7,140 bases of DNA from a virus (taxonomy: Duplodnaviria > Heunggongvirae > Uroviricota > Caudoviricetes): positions 1 through 7,140 of IMG/VR virus record IMGVR_UViG_2695420514_000013; one strand, written 5' to 3'. The notes under the pieces were generated by a model. It made no database searches. It was not told where the DNA came from and saw only the letters and a program-made list of their open reading frames with translations. Shown here piece by piece: positions 1-7,140 of this stretch. Numbering within the stretch: the first letter of the stretch is position 1; every line of letters starts with the position of its first letter. Both the position numbers and the translations under genes were made by a program.

Positions 1-1
1 T

Positions 2-337
2 TTACGTGGTGAGTTTATTCGTGGCTGGGATGACGGGCGTGGAGCTGACAGTGGTCGGGGATTATTAAGCTTTCAAAAAGCCACTCTGGTTGAAAGTTTT
101 GGTCTGGTCAGGTCACCAACCACTGGCTCTTATCGTCTGGTTACCAGACCGACAGAAACTGTTTCTGATAATACGTCTAACTATATGACGACTGATTATG
201 ATTCCCGTGAAGGTTTATATTCCCCTGCAACAGCATACCCCTCTATCGAATTGCCACCAACTGGAGCAGGCGCAGGGGCTGGTTTTAGGGTTCGACCAAG
301 GAATATTGCATTTAACTATATTGTGAGGGCTGCATAA
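2..337 (+). CDS. Phage side tail-fibre protein, C-terminal (variable) part; 5' end lies upstream of the window
   Basis: Only one + frame (phase 2) is open from the window edge to TAA at 335-337. That stop overlaps the ATG of the downstream tfa gene (TAATG), the usual coupling of tail-fibre and assembly genes. Product inferred from position upstream of tfa and inside the Pin-invertible segment; no diagnostic motif seen. Confidence 0.55.
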   Translation, partial: LRGEFIRGWDDGRGADSGRGLLSFQKATLVESFGLVRSPTTGSYRLVTRPTETVSDNTSNYMTTDYDSREGLYSPATAYPSIELPPTGAGAGAGFRVRPRNIAFNYIVRAA

Positions 338-939
338 TGGATAACGCCATATTAAATAGCGAGATTATCGCCACCAAAGCAGGGAATATTACCGTCTATA
401 ACTATGATGGTGAAACTCGAGAATATATTTCCACTTCAAATGAATATCTTGCTGTTGGCGTCGGTATCCCTGCATATTCCTGTTTAGATGCCCCTGGCAC
501 ACATAAGGCGGGTTATGCTATCTGCCGTTCGATGGATTTAAACTCATGGGAATATGTGCCAGACCATCGCGGTGAAATCGTCTATAACACCGAAACGGGA
601 GACGCCAAAGAAATCACAACTCCGGGTGATTACCCCGAAAAAACAACCACTATCGCCCCGTTAACGCCATACGATAAATGGGATGGTGAGAAATGGGTGA
701 CGGATACCGAGGCACAGCATAGCGCCGCAGTAGACGCGGCAGAAGCACAACGTCAGTCACTGATTGATACTGCAATGGCTTCCATTAGTCTGATTCAACT
801 GAAATTGCAGGCCGGACGGAAGTTGACGCAGGCAGAAACAACCCGACTTAACGCCGTGCTGGATTACATTGACGCGGTGACGGTAACAGATACCAGCACC
901 GCGCCGGATGTCATCTGGCCTGAACTGCCGGAGGCGTAG
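337..939 (+). CDS. tfaE: Tail-fibre assembly protein (Tfa chaperone), e14 TfaE-like, 200 aa
   Basis: Complete ATG-to-stop ORF, 200 aa. Central SW-x-x-V-x-DHRG-x-x-VY motif and C-terminal DTSTAPDVIWPELP tail typical of the lambda Tfa / Mu U family. Stop-start overlap with the upstream tail-fibre ORF. The symbol rests on recollection of E. coli e14 TfaE (same length and N-terminus), not on a search. Confidence 0.85.
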   Translation: MDNAILNSEIIATKAGNITVYNYDGETREYISTSNEYLAVGVGIPAYSCLDAPGTHKAGYAICRSMDLNSWEYVPDHRGEIVYNTETGDAKEITTPGDYPEKTTTIAPLTPYDKWDGEKWVTDTEAQHSAAVDAAEAQRQSLIDTAMASISLIQLKLQAGRKLTQAETTRLNAVLDYIDAVTVTDTSTAPDVIWPELPEA

Positions 940-1354
940 GCCATTCAATATCTGGAGCACTGGAAGTATCGACCAGTTCCAGTGCGTCCAGATAATCCAA
1001 CCACAAATTATATTGCGCCAGTTCCTCACCTTTCAGACGACCAATAGCGGCTTTACCGGGCCATTGCTTACTGTTCATGTGTTCGTTGGCCTGATTAAGC
1101 AATAATTGTCTTTCTGATTCTGCCTGTTGAATAAGTTCTTCATGTGATGGTTGAGGTATTTCAGCCCATGTGGGAAAACCATTTACCCCTGCAACTCGGA
1201 TTTTCCCTTGTGGCGGTTTCGCCATATATTTTACAGAAATGTTATCAGGAATATCTAATGCATCAGCGGGCCATGTTCCATTTACTTCATAAGTATTTTT
1301 TAAATTAACAGCATAAAATGCATTTTCCGAAGGGGAATAAATATATTGATTCAT
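911..1354 (-). CDS. Second tail-fibre assembly protein (alternative Tfa of the invertible segment), 147 aa
   Basis: Complete ORF on the - strand. C-terminus DTSSAPDIEWPTPP parallels the C-terminus of the + strand Tfa. Its 3' end overlaps the + strand tfa by 29 bp (911-939). Its ATG is 1 nt after the stop of the upstream - strand tail-fibre cassette (TAA-T-ATG). Confidence 0.8.
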   Translation of the reverse strand: MNQYIYSPSENAFYAVNLKNTYEVNGTWPADALDIPDNISVKYMAKPPQGKIRVAGVNGFPTWAEIPQPSHEELIQQAESERQLLLNQANEHMNSKQWPGKAAIGRLKGEELAQYNLWLDYLDALELVDTSSAPDIEWPTPPAVQAR

Positions 1355-1355
1355 A

Positions 1356-1718
1356 TTATCTTCCTATTGCAATAATCATAGTTCCATACAAACCATTTCC
1401 GGTTGATACTTTTAAGGTTACTGATGTCCTTGTTGTCGTGTACCCCATAAGTTTAAAGGTCGGAGCAGCCGTTAATGTGCCATCAGACCATAAGGCACTA
1501 ACAGCAAGTGCACCTGAAGGAAATGCAATAGGGAAATTACCAGTAGTTCCGTTAGTGTCCGCCCCATAAACATTCATCGAAAACATTTGGACAATATGAC
1601 CACTTGGTAACTGAAACCAGTTTTTGCCAGATGGGAATGCAGACATATCTGGTATCTGATTTAAATCTCCCAAACCAACGTTTATGAAAATGCAGAAATA
1701 ACGAGCAAATGGCATCAT
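1356..1718 (-). CDS. Alternative tail-fibre C-terminal variable cassette (silent in this orientation; no constant N-terminal part attached)
   Basis: The - strand frame is open from the stop at 1740-1742 down to TAA at 1356-1358 and reads through the crossover site (FINVGLG). It is G/T/S/N-rich like fibre tips. The ATG at 1718 is probably fortuitous; functionally the cassette starts at the crossover site (about 1690) and would be expressed only after inversion fuses it to the upstream constant region. Confidence 0.6.
   Translation of the reverse strand: MMPFARYFCIFINVGLGDLNQIPDMSAFPSGKNWFQLPSGHIVQMFSMNVYGADTNGTTGNFPIAFPSGALAVSALWSDGTLTAAPTFKLMGYTTTRTSVTLKVSTGNGLYGTMIIAIGR
1665..1690. other. 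Site-specific inversion crossover site (pix-like, hix/gix family), right boundary of the invertible tail-fibre segment
   Basis: 26-bp sequence ATCTCCCAAACC-AA-CGTTTATGAAAA: two imperfect inverted 12-bp half-sites around a central AA dinucleotide. By eye it matches about 7-8 of 12 positions per half-site with hixL/gix as I recall them. It sits 55 bp upstream of the pin start, where such sites lie in Mu, P1 and e14. Confidence 0.55.
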
Positions 1719-1744
1719 TCCTGCTTTTGTCAGGGGGATCTACC

Positions 1745-2299
1745 ATGCTTATTGGCTATGTACGCGTATCAACAAATGACCAGAACACAGATCTACAACG
1801 TAATGCGCTGAACTGTGCAGGATGCGAGCTGATTTTTGAAGACAAGATAAGCGGCACAAAGTCCGAAAGGCCGGGACTGAAAAAACTGCTCAGGACATTA
1901 TCGGCAGGTGACACTCTGGTTGTCTGGAAGCTGGATCGGCTGGGGCGTAGTATGCGGCATCTTGTCGTGTTGGTGGAGGAGTTGCGCGAACGAGGCATCA
2001 ACTTTCGTAGTCTGACGGATTCAATTGATACCAGCACACCAATGGGGCGTTTTTTCTTTCATGTGATGGGTGCCTTGGCTGAAATGGAACGAGAACTGAT
2101 TGTTGAACGAACAAAAGCTGGACTGGAAGCTGCTCGCGCACAGGGACGAATTGGTGGACGTCGTCCCAAACTTACACCAGAACAATGGGCGCAGGCCGGG
2201 CGATTAATTGCATCAGGAGTTCCTCGCCAGAAGGTGGCGATTATCTATGATGTTGGTGTGTCAACTTTGTATAAGAGGTTTCCTGCAGGGGATAAATAA
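1745..2299 (+). CDS. pin: Serine-recombinase DNA invertase Pin (Hin/Gin/Cin family), 184 aa
   Basis: N-terminus MLIGYVRVSTNDQ (catalytic Ser in the VRVSTNDQ motif), resolvase catalytic domain and C-terminal HTH (GVPRQKVAIIYDVGVSTLYKRF). AGGGGG Shine-Dalgarno 7 nt upstream of ATG 1745. The track ORF starting at 1709 adds 12 residues with no ribosome-binding site and is less likely. Confidence 0.95.
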   Translation: MLIGYVRVSTNDQNTDLQRNALNCAGCELIFEDKISGTKSERPGLKKLLRTLSAGDTLVVWKLDRLGRSMRHLVVLVEELRERGINFRSLTDSIDTSTPMGRFFFHVMGALAEMERELIVERTKAGLEAARAQGRIGGRRPKLTPEQWAQAGRLIASGVPRQKVAIIYDVGVSTLYKRFPAGDK

Positions 2300-2405
2300 A
2301 GTTAAAGACACTTTGTGTACAAAAGAAAGTAAAACAACAGCAACTTGTTGCAATTTTATCATTAAAAGTAGTATTGTCGTGAAAAATTGATTAAAGATTA
2401 ATATT

Positions 2406-3239
2406 ATGCATGTTTTTGATAACAATGGAATTGAACTGAAAGCTGAGTGTTCGATAGGTGAAGAGGATGGTGTTTATGGTCTAATCCTTGAGTCGTGGGG
2501 GCCGGGTGACAGAAACAAAGATTACAATATCGCTCTTGATTATATCATTGAACGGTTGGTTGATTCTGGTGTATCCCAAGTCGTAGTATATCTGGCGTCA
2601 TCATCAGTCAGAAAACATATGCATTCTTTGGATGAAAGAAAAATCCATCCTGGTGAATATTTTACTTTGATTGGTAATAGCCCCCGCGATATACGCTTGA
2701 AGATGTGTGGTTATCAGGCTTATTTTAGTCGTACGGGGAGAAAGGAAATTCCTTCCGGCAATAGAACGAAACGAATATTGATAAATGTTCCAGGTATTTA
2801 TAGTGACAGTTTTTGGGCGTCTATAATACGTGGAGAACTATCAGAGTTTTCACAGCCTACAGATGATGAATCGCTTCTGAATATGAGGGTTAGTAAATTA
2901 ATTAAGAAAACGTTGAGTCAACCCGAGGGCTCCAGGAAACCAGTTGAGGTAGAAAGACTACAAAAAGTTTATGTCCGAGACCCGATGGTAAAAGCTTGGA
3001 TTTTACAGCAAAGTAAAGGTATATGTGAAAACTGTGGTAAAAATGCTCCGTTTTATTTAAATGATGGAAACCCATATTTGGAAGTGCATCATGTAATTCC
3101 CCTGTCTTCAGGTGGTGCTGATACAACAGATAACTGTGTTGCCCTTTGTCCGAATTGCCATAGAGAATTGCACTATAGTAAAAATGCAAAAGAACTAATC
3201 GAGATGCTTTACGTTAATATAAACCGATTACAGAAATAA
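2406..3239 (+). CDS. mcrA: McrA, 5-methylcytosine-dependent type IV restriction endonuclease (HNH nuclease), 277 aa
   Basis: Complete 277-aa ORF. C-terminal HNH/zinc-finger motif CENCGK...EVHHVIPLSSGGADTTDNCVALCPNCHRELH. Sequence and length match my recollection of E. coli K-12 McrA. AT-rich relative to its neighbours and located immediately after pin, as in e14. Confidence 0.95.
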   Translation: MHVFDNNGIELKAECSIGEEDGVYGLILESWGPGDRNKDYNIALDYIIERLVDSGVSQVVVYLASSSVRKHMHSLDERKIHPGEYFTLIGNSPRDIRLKMCGYQAYFSRTGRKEIPSGNRTKRILINVPGIYSDSFWASIIRGELSEFSQPTDDESLLNMRVSKLIKKTLSQPEGSRKPVEVERLQKVYVRDPMVKAWILQQSKGICENCGKNAPFYLNDGNPYLEVHHVIPLSSGGADTTDNCVALCPNCHRELHYSKNAKELIEMLYVNINRLQK

Positions 3240-3377
3240 AATTATTTATTAAAGTCACATTTAAGACGTAATACCCTACAGGGTAAAAATTTTTTCTGAT
3301 CTTAACTTCTGCAAATGTTAACTGCTATTTTTATGCTAAAAATGGTTATCAAAACTCAAAAACACATGTTTATAATC

Positions 3378-3414
3378 AATGAGTTATAGAAATGCTAAGG
3401 GCTAATGAGTTATA
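3378..3414. repeat. Two direct copies of AATGAGTTATA (3378-3388 and 3404-3414) in the spacer between mcrA and the icd remnant
   Basis: Exact 11-bp direct repeat, 26-bp period, about 60-95 bp from the icd junction. Function unknown; the position fits arm-type recombination-protein binding sites of an att site. Confidence 0.35.
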
Positions 3415-3472
3415 TGCAAATTAGTAAAATTATGTTGCTATGTCAAATAGTTACGATTTAGTCATCTAACTA

Positions 3473-3586
3473 ATGCTGCGCCATATGGGTTGGACTGAAG
3501 CAGCTGACCTGATTGTTAAAGGTATGGAAGGCGCTAAACTGCTGAAATGTTCAGAGTTTGGTGATGCGATCATCGAAAATATGTAA
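3473..3586 (+). pseudogene. icdC: icdC: displaced 3' remnant of isocitrate dehydrogenase gene icd (prophage attR side)
   Basis: In-frame translation [37 protein letters not shown] matches the Icd C-terminus as I recall it, except that 17 codons (INAKTVTYDFERLMDGA) are missing. No promoter or N-terminal coding sequence precedes it; an in-frame stop lies at 3467-3469. Confidence 0.85.
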
Positions 3587-3610
3587 TTACCACATGTGTT
3601 AAATATTATA

Positions 3611-3639
3611 ACGGGCGTATAACACGCCCGTTGTTTTAT
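3611..3639 (+). terminator. Rho-independent terminator downstream of the icd 3' end
   Basis: Perfect 8-bp stem ACGGGCGT (3611-3618) / ACGCCCGT (3624-3631) with 5-nt loop, followed by TGTTTTAT. A-rich on the 5' side, so it may also serve the convergent hydrolase gene. Confidence 0.7.
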
Positions 3640-3652
3640 GATGATGTAAAAT

Positions 3653-3674
3653 CTTCCCCAAAACTTCCCCAAAA
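3653..3674. repeat. Tandem duplication of an 11-bp unit, CTTCCCCAAAA x2 (plus a partial third CT)
   Basis: Read directly: cttccccaaaa-cttccccaaaa-ct, in the non-coding gap between the icd remnant and the hydrolase gene. Confidence 0.6.
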
Positions 3675-3719
3675 CTGGCTATTTTCTATGCTGTTTTGAT
3701 ATCTACGATAACCCGGTAT

Positions 3720-4640
3720 TTACAGAGTTTCCTCAAAGAATGGAGCTAATACTGAAATCGCTTCAGCCACATAGGCTTTGCCGTCATAGAGGTCCATATG
3801 GTTAGCGCCTTCAACAATGTGATAGCGTTTATCCTGACTTGATGCTCGATCGTACAGGTCGTCACTCATCCATTTACTTCCTGCCAGACTGCCCGCCACA
3901 ATCTGCATCGGCTGAGTCAGGTACACTTCCGCCATATGGTAAGCATCATAGGTAATCATCTGGTTAAGGCTGCGCAAAGTAGCGTAACCCGGTGCTGTTG
4001 GATACTGCGCGCGAGAGGTGTGGTAATACTCCCAGGCCTGACGCAGTTCTTCGTTCGGCGCATCGGACTCTTTCATTGGCGCCAGTGGCATAATGGCGTA
4101 TTCTCCGCTGCTAATATCGCTGGTTCGGGCGTTTGAACCCGCTTCAATGTGTGGCAGAGCATCAATAGATTTCACATTGTTTTCCCAACCATTGCGGAAC
4201 ATCGAACCAATATTGACCGCACTAACGGTGCCGATAGCCTTGATGCGGCGATCCTGAATTGCAGCATTGGCTGTATATCCTGCACCAGCACAAATTCCCA
4301 TCGCACCAATTCGGGCATTGTCGACATAAGAAAGTGTTGTCAGGTAATCAATTACGGCACTGACGTCTTCAGTACGAATGTATGGGTTTTCTAACTGACG
4401 CGGCTCGCCGCCGCTTTCACCTTGATAAGATGCGTCATAAGCAATAGTGACAAATCCCTTTTCCGCCAGTTTTTCGGCATAGGTTCCGGCCGTTTGCTCT
4501 TTAACGCCCCCACCAGGGTGAGATACCACAATTGCCGGATACTGACGGGTTTCATCAAATTGGGGAGGGAAATAGATCACAGCAGACAAAGAGATGGTTG
4601 GATTATTGCTGTTAGTGAAGCTGACTTTATTATTCATCAT
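3720..4640 (-). CDS. Alpha/beta hydrolase of the dienelactone-hydrolase type (putative Cys-His-Asp hydrolase), about 306 aa
   Basis: Long - strand ORF. G-I-C-A-G nucleophile-elbow motif with Cys (GAMGICAGAGY) and a C-terminal His (EGANHMDLYD), as in dienelactone hydrolases. Start placed at the ATG at 4640 because a GAGGAA Shine-Dalgarno lies 4-6 nt upstream; the track start at 4652 has none. Length and the divergent LysR partner recall the E. coli ycjY/ycjZ pair, but that is not verifiable here. Confidence 0.8.
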   Translation of the reverse strand: MMNNKVSFTNSNNPTISLSAVIYFPPQFDETRQYPAIVVSHPGGGVKEQTAGTYAEKLAEKGFVTIAYDASYQGESGGEPRQLENPYIRTEDVSAVIDYLTTLSYVDNARIGAMGICAGAGYTANAAIQDRRIKAIGTVSAVNIGSMFRNGWENNVKSIDALPHIEAGSNARTSDISSGEYAIMPLAPMKESDAPNEELRQAWEYYHTSRAQYPTAPGYATLRSLNQMITYDAYHMAEVYLTQPMQIVAGSLAGSKWMSDDLYDRASSQDKRYHIVEGANHMDLYDGKAYVAEAISVLAPFFEETL

Positions 4641-4740
4641 TCTGTTCCTCATGGCGTTGCCGGTTCGTTTTAACGGCTGGTGATATCACTATAGATATTG
4701 ATCATTAAGTTGATTAGACCCAAAATCATGATTGGACCTA

Positions 4741-4752
4741 TCATTTAAATGA
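4741..4752. promoter_or_regulatory. Perfect 12-bp palindrome TCATTTAAATGA in the divergent intergenic region (candidate LysR-type operator)
   Basis: Perfect dyad 26 bp upstream of the LysR start, embedded in ATC-N8-GAT. Additional dyads lie at 4681-4688 (TGATATCA) and 4701-4714 (ATCA-N6-TGAT). Possible -35 TTGGAC (4732-4737) and -10 TAATAG (4754-4759) flank it. Function is inferred, not shown. Confidence 0.3.
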
Positions 4753-4777
4753 TTAATAGATTGTATAGAGATACTGA

Positions 4778-5677
4778 ATGAAGCGTGAAGAAATCGCTGA
4801 TCTGATGGCATTCGTCGTCGTTGCAGAGGAGCGTAGCTTCACTCGCGCAGCAGTCCGCTTGGGCATGGCGCAGTCAGCTTTAAGCCAGATAGTGCGTCGT
4901 ATAGAAGAACGATTGGGATTGCGGCTCCTGACGCGAACCACGCGTAGCGTTGTGCCAACTGAAGCGGGCGAACATCTTTTATCTGTTCTTGGCCCGATGT
5001 TGCATGACATAGATTCAGCCCTGTCATCCCTGAGTGAGCTGCAGAATCGCCCATCCGGGACAATACGTATTACTACAGTAGAACATGCAGCAAAGACGAT
5101 ACTGCTACCAGCCATGCGCACATTCCTGAAATCGCATCCTGAAATTGATATTCAGCTTACCATTGATTATGGTTTGACCGATGTCGTTTCTGAACGTTTT
5201 GATGCAGGTGTCCGTCTGGGAGGGGAGGTGGATAAAGATATGATTGCCATTCGAATCGGGCCTGATATACCAATGGCTATTGTTGGCTCACCGGATTATT
5301 TTTCCCGCCGAAGCGTTCCAACGTCAGTGTCACAATTAATAGACCATCAGGCCATTAATTTGTATCTTCCCACATCGGGTACAGCGAATCGCTGGCGATT
5401 AATACGTGGTGGACGTGAGGTTCGTGTTCGCATGGAAGGTCAGCTTTTACTGAATACGATAGATCTGATCATTGATGCTGCAATTGATGGGCACGGATTA
5501 GCGTATCTACCTCATGATCAGGTTGAGCGGGCGATTAAAGAAAAAAAACTGATACGTGTTCTGGATAAATTCACACCAGACTTACCCGGTTATCACCTGT
5601 ACTATCCACACCGTCGGCATGCTGGCTCGGCATTCTCCTTATTTATAGATAGGCTGAAGTATAAAGGCGCTGTTTAG
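4778..5677 (+). CDS. LysR-type transcriptional regulator, 299 aa
   Basis: N-terminal winged-HTH signature (FVVVAEERSFTRAAVRLGMAQSALSQIVRRIEERLGLRLLTRTTRSVVPTEAG) followed by a substrate-binding domain of typical LTTR length. Transcribed divergently from the hydrolase, the usual LTTR-target arrangement. Confidence 0.9.
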   Translation: MKREEIADLMAFVVVAEERSFTRAAVRLGMAQSALSQIVRRIEERLGLRLLTRTTRSVVPTEAGEHLLSVLGPMLHDIDSALSSLSELQNRPSGTIRITTVEHAAKTILLPAMRTFLKSHPEIDIQLTIDYGLTDVVSERFDAGVRLGGEVDKDMIAIRIGPDIPMAIVGSPDYFSRRSVPTSVSQLIDHQAINLYLPTSGTANRWRLIRGGREVRVRMEGQLLLNTIDLIIDAAIDGHGLAYLPHDQVERAIKEKKLIRVLDKFTPDLPGYHLYYPHRRHAGSAFSLFIDRLKYKGAV

Positions 5678-6262
5678 TTTTGCTTGATGATACGTTGATT
5701 TCATTTTTCCCTTAACGTGTTCACAGTTCCTTTCGACGTTTTAGTTATTTTTTCTTCTTCATACAATGGCGGCAATTACTTTCTTTTATTTTTATTATCG
5801 TGGATGTTAATACCAGAACTTCTGACCCTACGATGCATGTTTTTTGTATATTATCTGTATCAGGCAAAGAGTGGCGCAAATTGTGGATGGTGGGGGAGTA
5901 TAACCCGGAAGAGTTTACATTTTTGAACGGTATTTTTTGTAATGTAAAGGAAAATCTGTGTCGGAATGATCGCTATTTGGGTGCAGATGGCAGAAGGAGT
6001 GGGGAAATAAATAATAATTCTACGATGATATTATTTGGTTGTATCGGTTAGTGATGAACTCAGGTCGCCAGATGCTGCACTATCTCCGGCGTGGATGATG
6101 CTTTCAGTCTCAGACTTACTGACATCGCTCAATGGGATTCTTTCGTCCTCAGTGAGCGCATCGAAACCATAACTAACCAATTGAATAGCCTGCAAGAGTA
6201 TGTGAGATCACAGTGTTCATATTAGAAAAGTCTTATCATAAGATTTTTTATATGGATGCATT

Positions 6263-6649
6263 ATGTCTCAATACGCTCGTGCCGCTTTAATTGCTTATAA
6301 TTTGGTTGCCGATAAATCAATGTCTCCTCGTGAGGCTTGGGACGCCGCTGTTGCTAAGGTTACAAAAAGCGAATCCTCAAGAAAGAAGGGATGCCCAAGG
6401 GCAACGTTTCTCGCCTTGGCGGATTGCGGTTATCTGAAGAATGTAGAACCACAGTATGGGGAGAAAAAAGGCGGTAAGTTGTACCAAAGGGCGGTTGAAG
6501 TTGCGAATCTGATTCTTGATTTACCCGGAATTAGCAAAGCTGAGTTAGTTGATAAAACTTGCTATAAAGACGGGCAAGGGTCTTATGACATTGTGCTAAC
6601 ACTCGCTCAGTGCGGATTTCTCCAACGCCCTCAGCAAGATATTAAGTGA
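6263..6649 (+). CDS. Hypothetical protein, 128 aa, internally duplicated, four Cys; no family recognised
   Basis: Clean ATG-to-TGA ORF with non-repetitive, mid-GC codon composition, unlike the AT-rich DNA upstream. Weak GGA ribosome-binding site 6 nt upstream. Followed by a hairpin plus T-run. Two homologous halves (see findings). Confidence 0.65.
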   Translation: MSQYARAALIAYNLVADKSMSPREAWDAAVAKVTKSESSRKKGCPRATFLALADCGYLKNVEPQYGEKKGGKLYQRAVEVANLILDLPGISKAELVDKTCYKDGQGSYDIVLTLAQCGFLQRPQQDIK

Positions 6650-6654
6650 TTTAT

Positions 6655-6682
6655 GGCCTCGCTGTTAGCGGGGTTTTTTCAT
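6655..6682 (+). terminator. Putative rho-independent terminator after the 128-aa ORF
   Basis: GC-rich stem CCTCGC / GCGGGG (one G-U pair) with loop TGTTA, followed by TTTTTT at 6675-6680, 6 nt after the stop codon. Confidence 0.5.
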
Positions 6683-6688
6683 ATCTGA

Positions 6689-6820
6689 ATCTCACCACCG
6701 GATGCACTGACTGGCTTCGTGGCTGTTTTCAACAGTGAGGAGGCATCGTGGCATCTCGTTGAAGACCCGCGGGGTAAGACTGTCAGTGGCGTGGCTTCAG
6801 GTAATGCGCTATCCCTTTAA
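6689..6820 (+). pseudogene. Internal fragment of a tail-fibre assembly (tfa) gene, about 43 codons, truncated at both ends
   Basis: Open frame [43 protein letters not shown] carries the Tfa core motif SW-x-x-V-x-D-x-RG-x-x-V also present in the intact Tfa at 337-939 (NSWEYVPDHRGEIVY). It resembles the central part of lambda/Rac-type Tfa as I recall it. No start codon; bounded upstream by the stop at 6686-6688 and a terminator, downstream by a stop and hairpin. Confidence 0.6.
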
Positions 6821-6822
6821 AA

Positions 6823-6847
6823 GGGAGGTTATACCTCCCTTTCTTTG
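6823..6847. terminator. Bidirectional hairpin terminator between convergent genes
   Basis: Perfect stem GGGAGG (6823-6828) / CCTCCC (6834-6839) with loop TTATA, flanked by A-run on one side and TTTCTTTG on the other. The stop codon of the - strand acetyltransferase lies in the loop. Confidence 0.6.
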
Positions 6848-7083
6848 CAAACGTTAACTTTCTTAGTATAGCAAATCGAATTTGAGGGTATATCCTTATT
6901 TACAAATGTAAAAGCACCAATTTTTACATTATCACCTATAGTAATGTTATCTGCGATAATACAGGAGTTCGCTCCAATATTTACATTGTCACCAATGCTA
7001 ATTCTATTAGTATTGTTGTTTTTTAAGCCAATTGTTGTGTTTTGCCTTATATTGAAGTTTCTACCAATTGTGGCATATTGATC
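6829..7083 (-). pseudogene. Hexapeptide-repeat (left-handed beta-helix) acetyl/acyltransferase, 3' portion; interrupted by in-frame TAG at 7084-7086, frame continues to the window edge
   Basis: The - strand translation shows tandem [LIV]-G-x-x-x-x hexads (TIGRNF NIRQNT TIGLKN ... SIGDNV NIGANS ... ITIGDN VKIGAF), typical of LacA/Maa/WbbJ-type transferases. Very AT-rich, Asn-rich codon usage. No ATG/GTG/TTG occurs in frame between the TAG and the stop, and the same frame stays open from the TAG to position 7140, so the gene looks disrupted by a single amber codon. Confidence 0.55.
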
Positions 7084-7140
7084 CTACCCATGTAATATGG
7101 ACACAAGCCTAAGCGAGGTTCTGATTTTCAAATTGTTCCG

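Follow-up and report, generated by a model that had tools for sequence, protein, structure and literature searches.

The stretch of viral DNA analysed here, 7,140 nucleotides assigned to the Caudoviricetes (positions 1 to 7,140 of IMG/VR record IMGVR_UViG_2695420514_000013, hereafter the window), carries near its right end a scrap of a lambdoid prophage, and within this scrap an intact gene of the DUF6979 family. The gene lies at positions 6263–6649 on the plus strand, starts with ATG and encodes 128 amino acids, as judged from the list of open reading frames (ORFs), the Pfam and phrog_5039 matches, DNA alignment and the ratio of non-synonymous to synonymous substitution rates (dN/dS). The original prediction placed this gene correctly and took it to be genuine, as it is, but called its product an orphan that could be assigned to no family. 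Profile searches overturn the latter view: the protein matches Pfam family PF22399 (DUF6979) with 99.9 bits against a gathering cut-off of 27 bits (E = 1.5e-28), residues 1–121 aligning onto profile positions 1–127 of 127, and PHROG family phrog_5039 with 218.5 bits (E = 4.4e-65) over positions 1–124 of 124. The window ORF is thus a full-length and already catalogued member of an uncharacterised family. The category given for phrog_5039 is 'unknown function', E. coli copies that are about 90% identical carry the RefSeq annotation 'DUF6979 family protein', the close homologues are named by their sources solely 'hypothetical' or 'DUF6979 family protein', and a search of NCBIfam with the window protein returned nothing meaningful.

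When compared with phage and E. coli copies the window gene has a dN/dS of 0.19–0.43, which indicates that the DUF6979 family is under purifying selection; in one closely related pair (dS 0.04) the ratio is 0.96. The surrounding region is decayed, has a lower GC content (about 39–46%) and contains many gene fragments, and on these grounds the ORF might be thought to have arisen by chance in AT-rich junk. This explanation has next to no probability left, as it is refuted by the strength of the Pfam match, by hundreds of homologous clusters, by a dN/dS well below 1 and by a confident fold predicted with AlphaFold2 (AF2). Where the aligned E. coli and phage copies have their usual TAA stop codon, at 6635–6637, the window has CAA, which adds the four residues QDIK before a TGA at 6647–6649; the same extension is found in a 98%-identical protein (P0001) named by its source as E. 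albertii. No signal peptide or lipobox is evident by eye in the N-terminus, MSQYARAALIAYNLV.

The family is widespread. A word-indexed search found 98%-identical proteins named by their source as Escherichia albertii, relatives with 69–90% identity in E. coli and Salmonella, and a relative with 45% identity in Kluyvera. An exhaustive profile search gave 604 representative clusters (50% identity) at E <= 0.001, and its members are mostly stand-alone proteins of about 125–135 amino acids. A second profile search gave 1357 clusters at 90% identity, which include Paenibacillus, Brevibacillus, a spirochaete and the archaeon Methanolobus, and a scan of species-representative genomes located DUF6979 in Proteobacteria, Bacillota, Bacteroidota, Acidobacteriota, Chloroflexota, Planctomycetota and several archaea. 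No publication was found on the family or its identifiers (PF22399, phrog_5039 and member accessions). Hidden kinship to another Pfam family was ruled out by a scan of 68 diverse members, in which no second family was matched by more than one member even at E up to 5, the single matches being noise. Fusions of DUF6979 to other sequences are rare and uninformative: the extra regions of two longer proteins, P0081 (476 amino acids) and P0124 (215 amino acids), have no Pfam match, and for a third, P0179 (244 amino acids), a precomputed table lists DUF3969, which our own Pfam scan did not recover.

The prophage scrap that holds the gene spans 614 bp (6084–6697, plus strand), is 91.9% identical to E. 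coli prophage DNA and consists of the end of an Rz gene, the DUF6979 gene and a terminator; in alignments with phages the homology ends on both sides of it. The Rz (spanin) fragment at 6084–6225, identified by megablast and by alignment with the Rz genes of SfI, mEp460 and E. coli M18, comprises about 47 codons in frame to a TAG at 6223–6225. Its prophage match is annotated 'lysis protein', and the called 47-amino-acid product matches PF03245 (Phage_lysis). This fragment, overlooked by the original prediction, is the immediate upstream neighbour of DUF6979, and the 5' part of Rz, the endolysin and the holin are absent from the scrap. A weak Shine-Dalgarno sequence, GGA, can be read at 6254–6256, 6 nt before the ATG. 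Downstream of the gene the terminator scan confirmed that it has an intrinsic terminator of its own, as had been claimed, at 6655–6681, made up of a GC-rich 9-bp stem (6655–6675) followed by a T-run (-12.3 kcal/mol, z -2.5) and conserved in E. coli M18 and mEp460. At about 6697 the scrap runs into an internal piece of a tail-fibre-assembly (tfa) gene, translated in frame 3 of the plus strand over 6693–6820 with its stop at 6818–6820. The tfa relic, too, had been recognised before, and annotated tfa genes from 3521 E. coli genomes match positions 6693–6801 at 86% identity; compared with the window's own tfa gene the fragment gives a BLASTP E of 3e-4. The earlier suggestion that the gene is prophage cargo that has outlived its phage is therefore borne out by this combination of Rz end, gene and terminator, about 92% identical to lambdoid DNA and joined to a piece of tfa.

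The scrap resides at a fixed site near icd in Escherichia albertii-type chromosomes, whether e14 is present or not. The exact 128-amino-acid protein is indexed in 147 blocks of the sequence collection. In the loci that carry it, for which 24 contigs were read and three distinct layouts are shown, the order is in all three icd, hydrolase, LysR, truncated YcgJ gene, truncated Rz gene, DUF6979, hexapeptide acetyltransferase, NleG, QueH and omptin. In two of the layouts e14 is missing and in the third an e14-like insertion follows icd, and window positions 3524–7078 are 99.5% identical to the e14-free loci. That the scrap could be part of e14 is ruled out by its presence at the same site in e14-free chromosomes and by the end of the e14-like element at about position 3531 of the window.

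The home of the gene is better seen in intact phages. In the cultivated lambdoid phages mEp460_4F5, 4A7, D2, 1W, 3W, Lambda_4C10 and SfI the order holin, endolysin, Rz and DUF6979 is found on one strand near the right end of the genome, and it is identical in the E. coli M18 prophage; one chromosomal copy of DUF6979 is present in 248 of 5426 complete E. coli genomes. The DUF6979 ATG follows 37 nt after the Rz stop codon and this spacer is conserved among the phages, being the same in E. coli M18, SfI and mEp460, with one deleted G as the difference in the window. A sample of 26 IMG/VR loci, 25 of them divergent (about 28–50% identity to the window protein), gave 104 ORFs within two genes of DUF6979, among which were a Q-like antiterminator eight times, an endolysin five times or more, a small terminase four times, as well as holin and Rz spanin genes. 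Phages carry DUF6979 as an accessory gene, on the strand of the late operon, in cargo positions that flank the lysis cassette; in distant phages it is found between Q and the holin (as in L139, with the order Q, DUF6979, holin, endolysin) or just before the small terminase (as in L143, where it stands between a minor tail gene and TerS).

Lambdoid late genes are transcribed from pR' with Q antitermination, and a gene oriented with them in lambdoid late slots would be transcribed late in lytic growth. A promoter scan of the 37-nt gap after Rz found no promoter-like site on the plus strand. The late-operon orientation, the short distance to Rz and this gap together argue for late lytic rather than lysogenic expression. 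Within the gap of the window lies an AU-rich hairpin (6225–6249, plus strand; 11 bp with a 3-nt loop, -7.3 kcal/mol, RNA fold z -2.07), which is kept in all aligned phage copies. It is possibly a weak terminator or attenuator that is passed by Q-modified polymerase, or else a protein-binding palindrome.

A three-helix unit, duplicated in tandem long ago, gave rise to the protein. A tandem internal duplication had been proposed from the window protein alone, and it holds at the level of the family, the profiles of the N-terminal and C-terminal halves aligning in the register originally suggested. Single-sequence Smith-Waterman comparison found only the 10-residue pair LALADCGYLK/LTLAQCGFLQ (score 35, z about 4, shuffle p 0.001–0.005), and hhalign of the halves gave P = 0.0017 with an alignment of 72 sequences. 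With 243 sequences residues 1–64 and 65–124 align over 51 columns (probability 88.7, E = 2.6e-6, score 29.4), a score reached by none of 200 column-shuffled controls (mean 8.2, sd 2.0, maximum 15.8), while a reversed control scored 9.95. The repeat motif that emerges for the family is roughly h-h-x-x-L-[CW]-x-x-G-L-[IV], unlike the Cys-containing motif read earlier from the window protein. The AF2 model, built from the 72-sequence alignment (mean pLDDT 88.7, pTM 0.84), consists of two successive three-helix units (helices 3–16, 22–33 and 43–54, then 72–86, 92–99 and 107–116), each closed by a beta bridge of a single residue (58 and 120). The window protein is thus predicted to be small, soluble-looking and all-alpha, and it is basic, with a pI of 9.0 and a family median of 9.2. 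A Foldseek comparison of the model with PDB and BFVD gave nothing at E <= 0.001. Remote sequence relatives with solved structures were likewise sought in PDB with two family profiles (A1 and A4), and none was obtained from either.

It had also been proposed that cysteines paired within each half (C44 and C55, C100 and C117) could form a metal site or disulfides. All four cysteines are present in the window protein, but their pairing is not a feature of the family. Of 135 family members, 134 have Cys at position 44, 11 at position 55 and 18 at position 100; at position 117 Cys is not one of the four residues found most often (fewer than 18 members). Even among 11 homologues, 10 of which have 69–98% identity, C55 is replaced by S, C100 by G and C117 by Y, H, G or K. 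The conservation of the cysteines across homologues, with three of the four not conserved, thus rules out a metal site or disulfide pairs, and homologues lacking the cysteines had been named with the original prediction as an outcome that would refute it. Going by these alignments the pairing is an accident of the window sequence. The second frequent Cys of the family is at position 53 (105 of 135), where the window protein has Ala; in the model this position follows C44 by nine residues on the same helix and would, by this estimate, be too far from it for a disulfide.

What is conserved is a signature at the start of helix 3, K-x-C-P-[RK]-x-[AT]-F-L, together with an invariant Trp in helix 2. 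Both are present in the window protein as K42-G-C44-P45-R46-A-T48-F49-L50 and W26, and in the AF2 model C44 opens helix 3 (43–54). Among the 135 members Pro is found at position 45 in 133, Lys at position 42 in 131 and Trp at position 26 in 133. The signatures of the C-terminal half, N-K-x-Y-A and Q-M-D-V-V, and the Cys of L-C-E at position 53 are missing from the window protein, which at these family positions has the changes C53A, N73L, Y76R, W96V and Ser-Tyr in place of Q107-M108 (Q107S), with D109 and the hydrophobic pattern retained. C53A, N73L, Y76R, W96V and Q107S are carried by the enterobacterial phage subfamily as a whole, the window copy included; the missing signatures are a subfamily difference and membership of DUF6979 stands. 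The invariant residues (W26, K42, C44, P45) are concentrated in the N-terminal unit, and the retention of these residues by a subfamily that has lost the C-unit signatures suggests a single functional site, located in the N-terminal unit.

Neighbours of the cellular homologues were sampled in 78 species-level loci, with two genes on either side and ORFs called by a crude longest-ORF rule. All-versus-all blastp found no neighbour family that recurs beyond close relatives in the 78 loci, the largest cluster coming from three related Hoeflea genomes, and the commonest Pfam family among immediate neighbours occurred 2–3 times in 74. A conserved cellular neighbour, or a multi-gene system of which DUF6979 would be a component, was accordingly rejected for these loci. 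Cellular and metagenomic homologues are often found in variable islands with DNA-acting or defence genes near DUF6979 (HNH, Mrr_cat, GmrSD, Zorya, type I restriction-modification (RM) methylases, SIR2, NACHT and toxin-antitoxin genes), with HNH as the neighbour at L005 and Mrr_cat at L006 and L015; the last four of these classes are among neighbours from GTDB genomes. At L008 the homologue stands in an ordinary chromosomal context. One metagenomic locus (L007, 1–8095) is a clear defence island with an integrase nearby, where DUF6979 is located between a type I Zorya operon (ZorA-like, OmpA, EH_Signature, SNF2/Mrr_cat) and a GmrSD type IV restriction gene. In two other loci homologous genes are directly beside DUF6979, on opposite sides: positions 5432–6277 of L039, from an uncultured Oceanospirillaceae bacterium, and positions 4308–4967 of L068, from Methanolobus sp. 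ZRKC3, whose neighbour is an HNH-domain protein (the gene at 5308–5970 of L005). This neighbour and DUF6979 may together be a horizontally mobile two-gene unit.

The remainder of the window is made up of an e14-like element and chromosomal DNA. The e14-like element fills positions 1–3531 and ends after mcrA (2406–3239), with the chromosome junction at about 3524–3531. Its tail-fibre/tfa segment beside the pin invertase gene (1709–2299) is inverted relative to locus L099, while the pin–mcrA part is collinear (window 1–1662 and 1666–3531 compared with L099 3557–5218 and 5363–7229); Pin-mediated inversion of an e14-type segment would be expected to produce these two orientations in two strains. 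By coordinate offset from e14-free loci the 3' end of icd is expected at about 3597, and in e14-free loci an intact icd immediately precedes the hydrolase gene, which is the arrangement to be expected if the element integrates in icd. Between icd and the scrap is a divergent pair, an alpha/beta-hydrolase gene at 3720–4652 on the minus strand (310 amino acids, DLH/Peptidase_S15-type) and a LysR-family regulator gene at 4778–5677 on the plus strand (299 amino acids), which is absent from the E. coli matches to the window. Upstream of the Rz fragment, at 5800–6051, a lower-GC tract contains a short ORF, probably another gene remnant, whose called product in identical loci matches PF05666 (YcgJ). 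At the right end homology to E. albertii-type chromosomes stops at 7078 and the last 62 bases (7079–7140) are 95–97% identical to the end of an IS3-family element of E. coli; the insertion sequence appears to have inserted in a hexapeptide-repeat acetyltransferase gene (minus strand, from about 6829).

Taken together, the family assignment, the cargo position beside the lysis genes, the stranding of the window copy in a prophage scrap and the functional role proposed here form an explanation that, as a whole, we consider somewhat better than even. The role itself is put forward only tentatively: DUF6979 may be a small, basic, stand-alone nucleic-acid-binding accessory protein that is made late in infection. 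Such a protein would act alone, outside any operon-encoded system; in phages its gene would share the Q-antiterminated transcript of the late genes; it would bind nucleic acid via its two helix-3-type units, and the invariant K-x-C-P/Trp site of the N-terminal unit would supply the specific chemistry or contact. Nucleic-acid binding is suggested, with low confidence, by the basic pI across the family and by DNA-acting neighbours in several loci (HNH, Mrr_cat, GmrSD, ZorD and DNA methylases). Several observations weigh against this role. The connectors between helices 2 and 3 of the two units are 9 residues (34–42, with a short helix at 37–40) and 7 residues (100–106) long, which leaves no tight turn of the 3–4 residues that separate the second and the recognition helix in a canonical helix-turn-helix (HTH), and none of the solved HTH domains was matched significantly by the model. 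In a plain DNA binder an invariant Cys would be out of the ordinary, and it would better suit a thiol-dependent activity. The DNA-acting and defence neighbours were counted without a control set and are a lead rather than an enrichment result; the window subfamily, lacking several near-invariant residues, may differ in its exact role from the rest of the family; and the phage genes are taken to be late, and the relic copy silent, by inference. The invariant Cys leads directly to a different function, which we regard as rather unlikely, namely that DUF6979 is a thiol-dependent enzyme or a redox or electrophile sensor in which C44, flanked by the invariant K42 and by R/K46, is a low-pKa nucleophile, so that the protein would modify a small molecule or macromolecule, or would itself be modified by one. 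Conservation of C44 across bacteria, archaea and phages speaks for this, since Ser or Thr would suffice as a helix cap at the start of the helix that C44 opens in the model, as does the invariance of K42 and P45, and there are weak Foldseek matches to AhpD/CMD-type proteins (Bmp8, mlr4105 and D. radiodurans AhpD; probability <= 0.12). These fold matches are however not significant, there is no CxxC or resolving Cys, given that position 53 is nine residues along the same helix and Ala in the window, no Pfam family other than DUF6979 recurred in the scan of diverse members, and 125 residues with no cofactor-binding motif are little for an enzyme.

An anti-defence function, for example in anti-restriction, or a modulation of defence, directed in either case against host nucleases, would overlap with a nucleic-acid-binding or a thiol mechanism and is judged improbable in its own right. 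DUF6979 is small, solitary and mobile, it occupies classic cargo slots in phages, and it occurs repeatedly in variable islands beside nuclease or defence genes (L005, L006, L007 and L015); such landing in islands was however counted without a control for what any accessory gene would do, there is no conserved partner, and homologues also stand in ordinary chromosomal contexts. The protein is basic, unlike anti-restriction proteins of the Ocr type, which are acidic DNA mimics, and placement in the late operon would be poor timing against restriction of incoming DNA. PADLOC-DB v2 gave no matching family at E up to 1, and on this ground a component of a known defence system was rejected. This result, together with the late-operon orientation and the gap free of promoter-like sites, somewhat disfavours defence and superinfection exclusion, both among the functions first suggested for the gene, as roles that would be expressed in a lysogen. 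It is tempting to speculate, though this is a long shot, that DUF6979 is an unrecognised fold, made of a duplicated three-helix unit unmatched in solved structures, in which the Cys of K-x-C-P provides a new thiol activity directed at nucleic acid or else at a nuclease or defence protein of the host, used late by phages and as a stand-alone module in mobile elements; if so, it could represent, for example, a new class of anti-restriction or DNA-protecting factor. What the family does is independent of whether the window copy does anything, and it is quite conceivable, at somewhat under an even chance, that this copy is a silent passenger whose frame is intact only because the stranding deletion was recent, and which has no function in its host. 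The late promoter has been lost along with Q and the entire lysis cassette, and without this promoter and Q the window copy would probably be poorly expressed or silent under the nucleic-acid-binding model as well. The sole upstream promoter-like site on the plus strand (5987–6015) is a 9/12 match, in a scan where 4 sites were found and 3.7 were expected by shuffling, the AU-rich hairpin lies just upstream of the gene, and the normal stop codon has already mutated. The carrier strains are moreover 98.6–99.5% identical over the region, so that an intact frame says little about selection in the present host. On the other hand the frame is intact while its surroundings are truncated, the exact protein stands in the 147 blocks of the collection mentioned above, the terminator and the ribosome-binding region are untouched, and read-through from the LysR/YcgJ side is possible.

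For the window itself the interest is modest: the gene belongs to a family already catalogued and was left behind in a remnant of a prophage, and what had set the ORF apart, its orphan status and its paired cysteines, is not a property of the family. The DUF6979 family is nevertheless a reasonable target in work on phage accessory genes, because it is widespread in bacteria, archaea and phages, sits at the junction of Q, lysis and terminase genes, has an invariant Cys and an ancient duplication, gave no relative in PDB or BFVD and has, as far as was found, no publication.

Among known systems, comparison with HTH domains, including the single-chain double HTH of MarA and the bipartite DNA-binding domains of the Tc3 and Sleeping Beauty transposases, gave no convincing score; the connectors of the window protein are long (9 and 7 residues), its units are tied by a small beta bridge after helices 3 and 6, and its invariant Cys has no HTH counterpart. 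With the AhpD/CMD thiol proteins DUF6979 shares an all-alpha structure and a conserved Cys at a helix N-terminus, but it is without CxxC and about 50–60 residues shorter, and a relationship is not supported. Within PF22399 and phrog_5039 the window protein agrees with the family in its full-length match, its stand-alone form in the 125–135-residue length class, the sequence K-K-G-C-P-R-x-[AT]-F-L, W26 and the two-unit architecture, and differs by the subfamily substitutions and by the four-residue C-terminal extension of the window copy. In gene position there is a parallel with the lambdoid cargo genes or 'morons', such as bor of lambda, which follows Rz, and stx, which lies between Q and S. 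The bor gene encodes a lipoprotein, is on the opposite strand and is expressed in lysogens from its own promoter, whereas DUF6979 is co-oriented with the late operon, has no promoter-like site in the gap before it and no evident signal peptide or lipobox, and nothing indicates a virulence or surface function. What DUF6979 has in common with the morons is that it is found in both of their slots, after Rz and between Q and the holin, and that it is dispensable-looking, patchy in its distribution and equipped with its own terminator.

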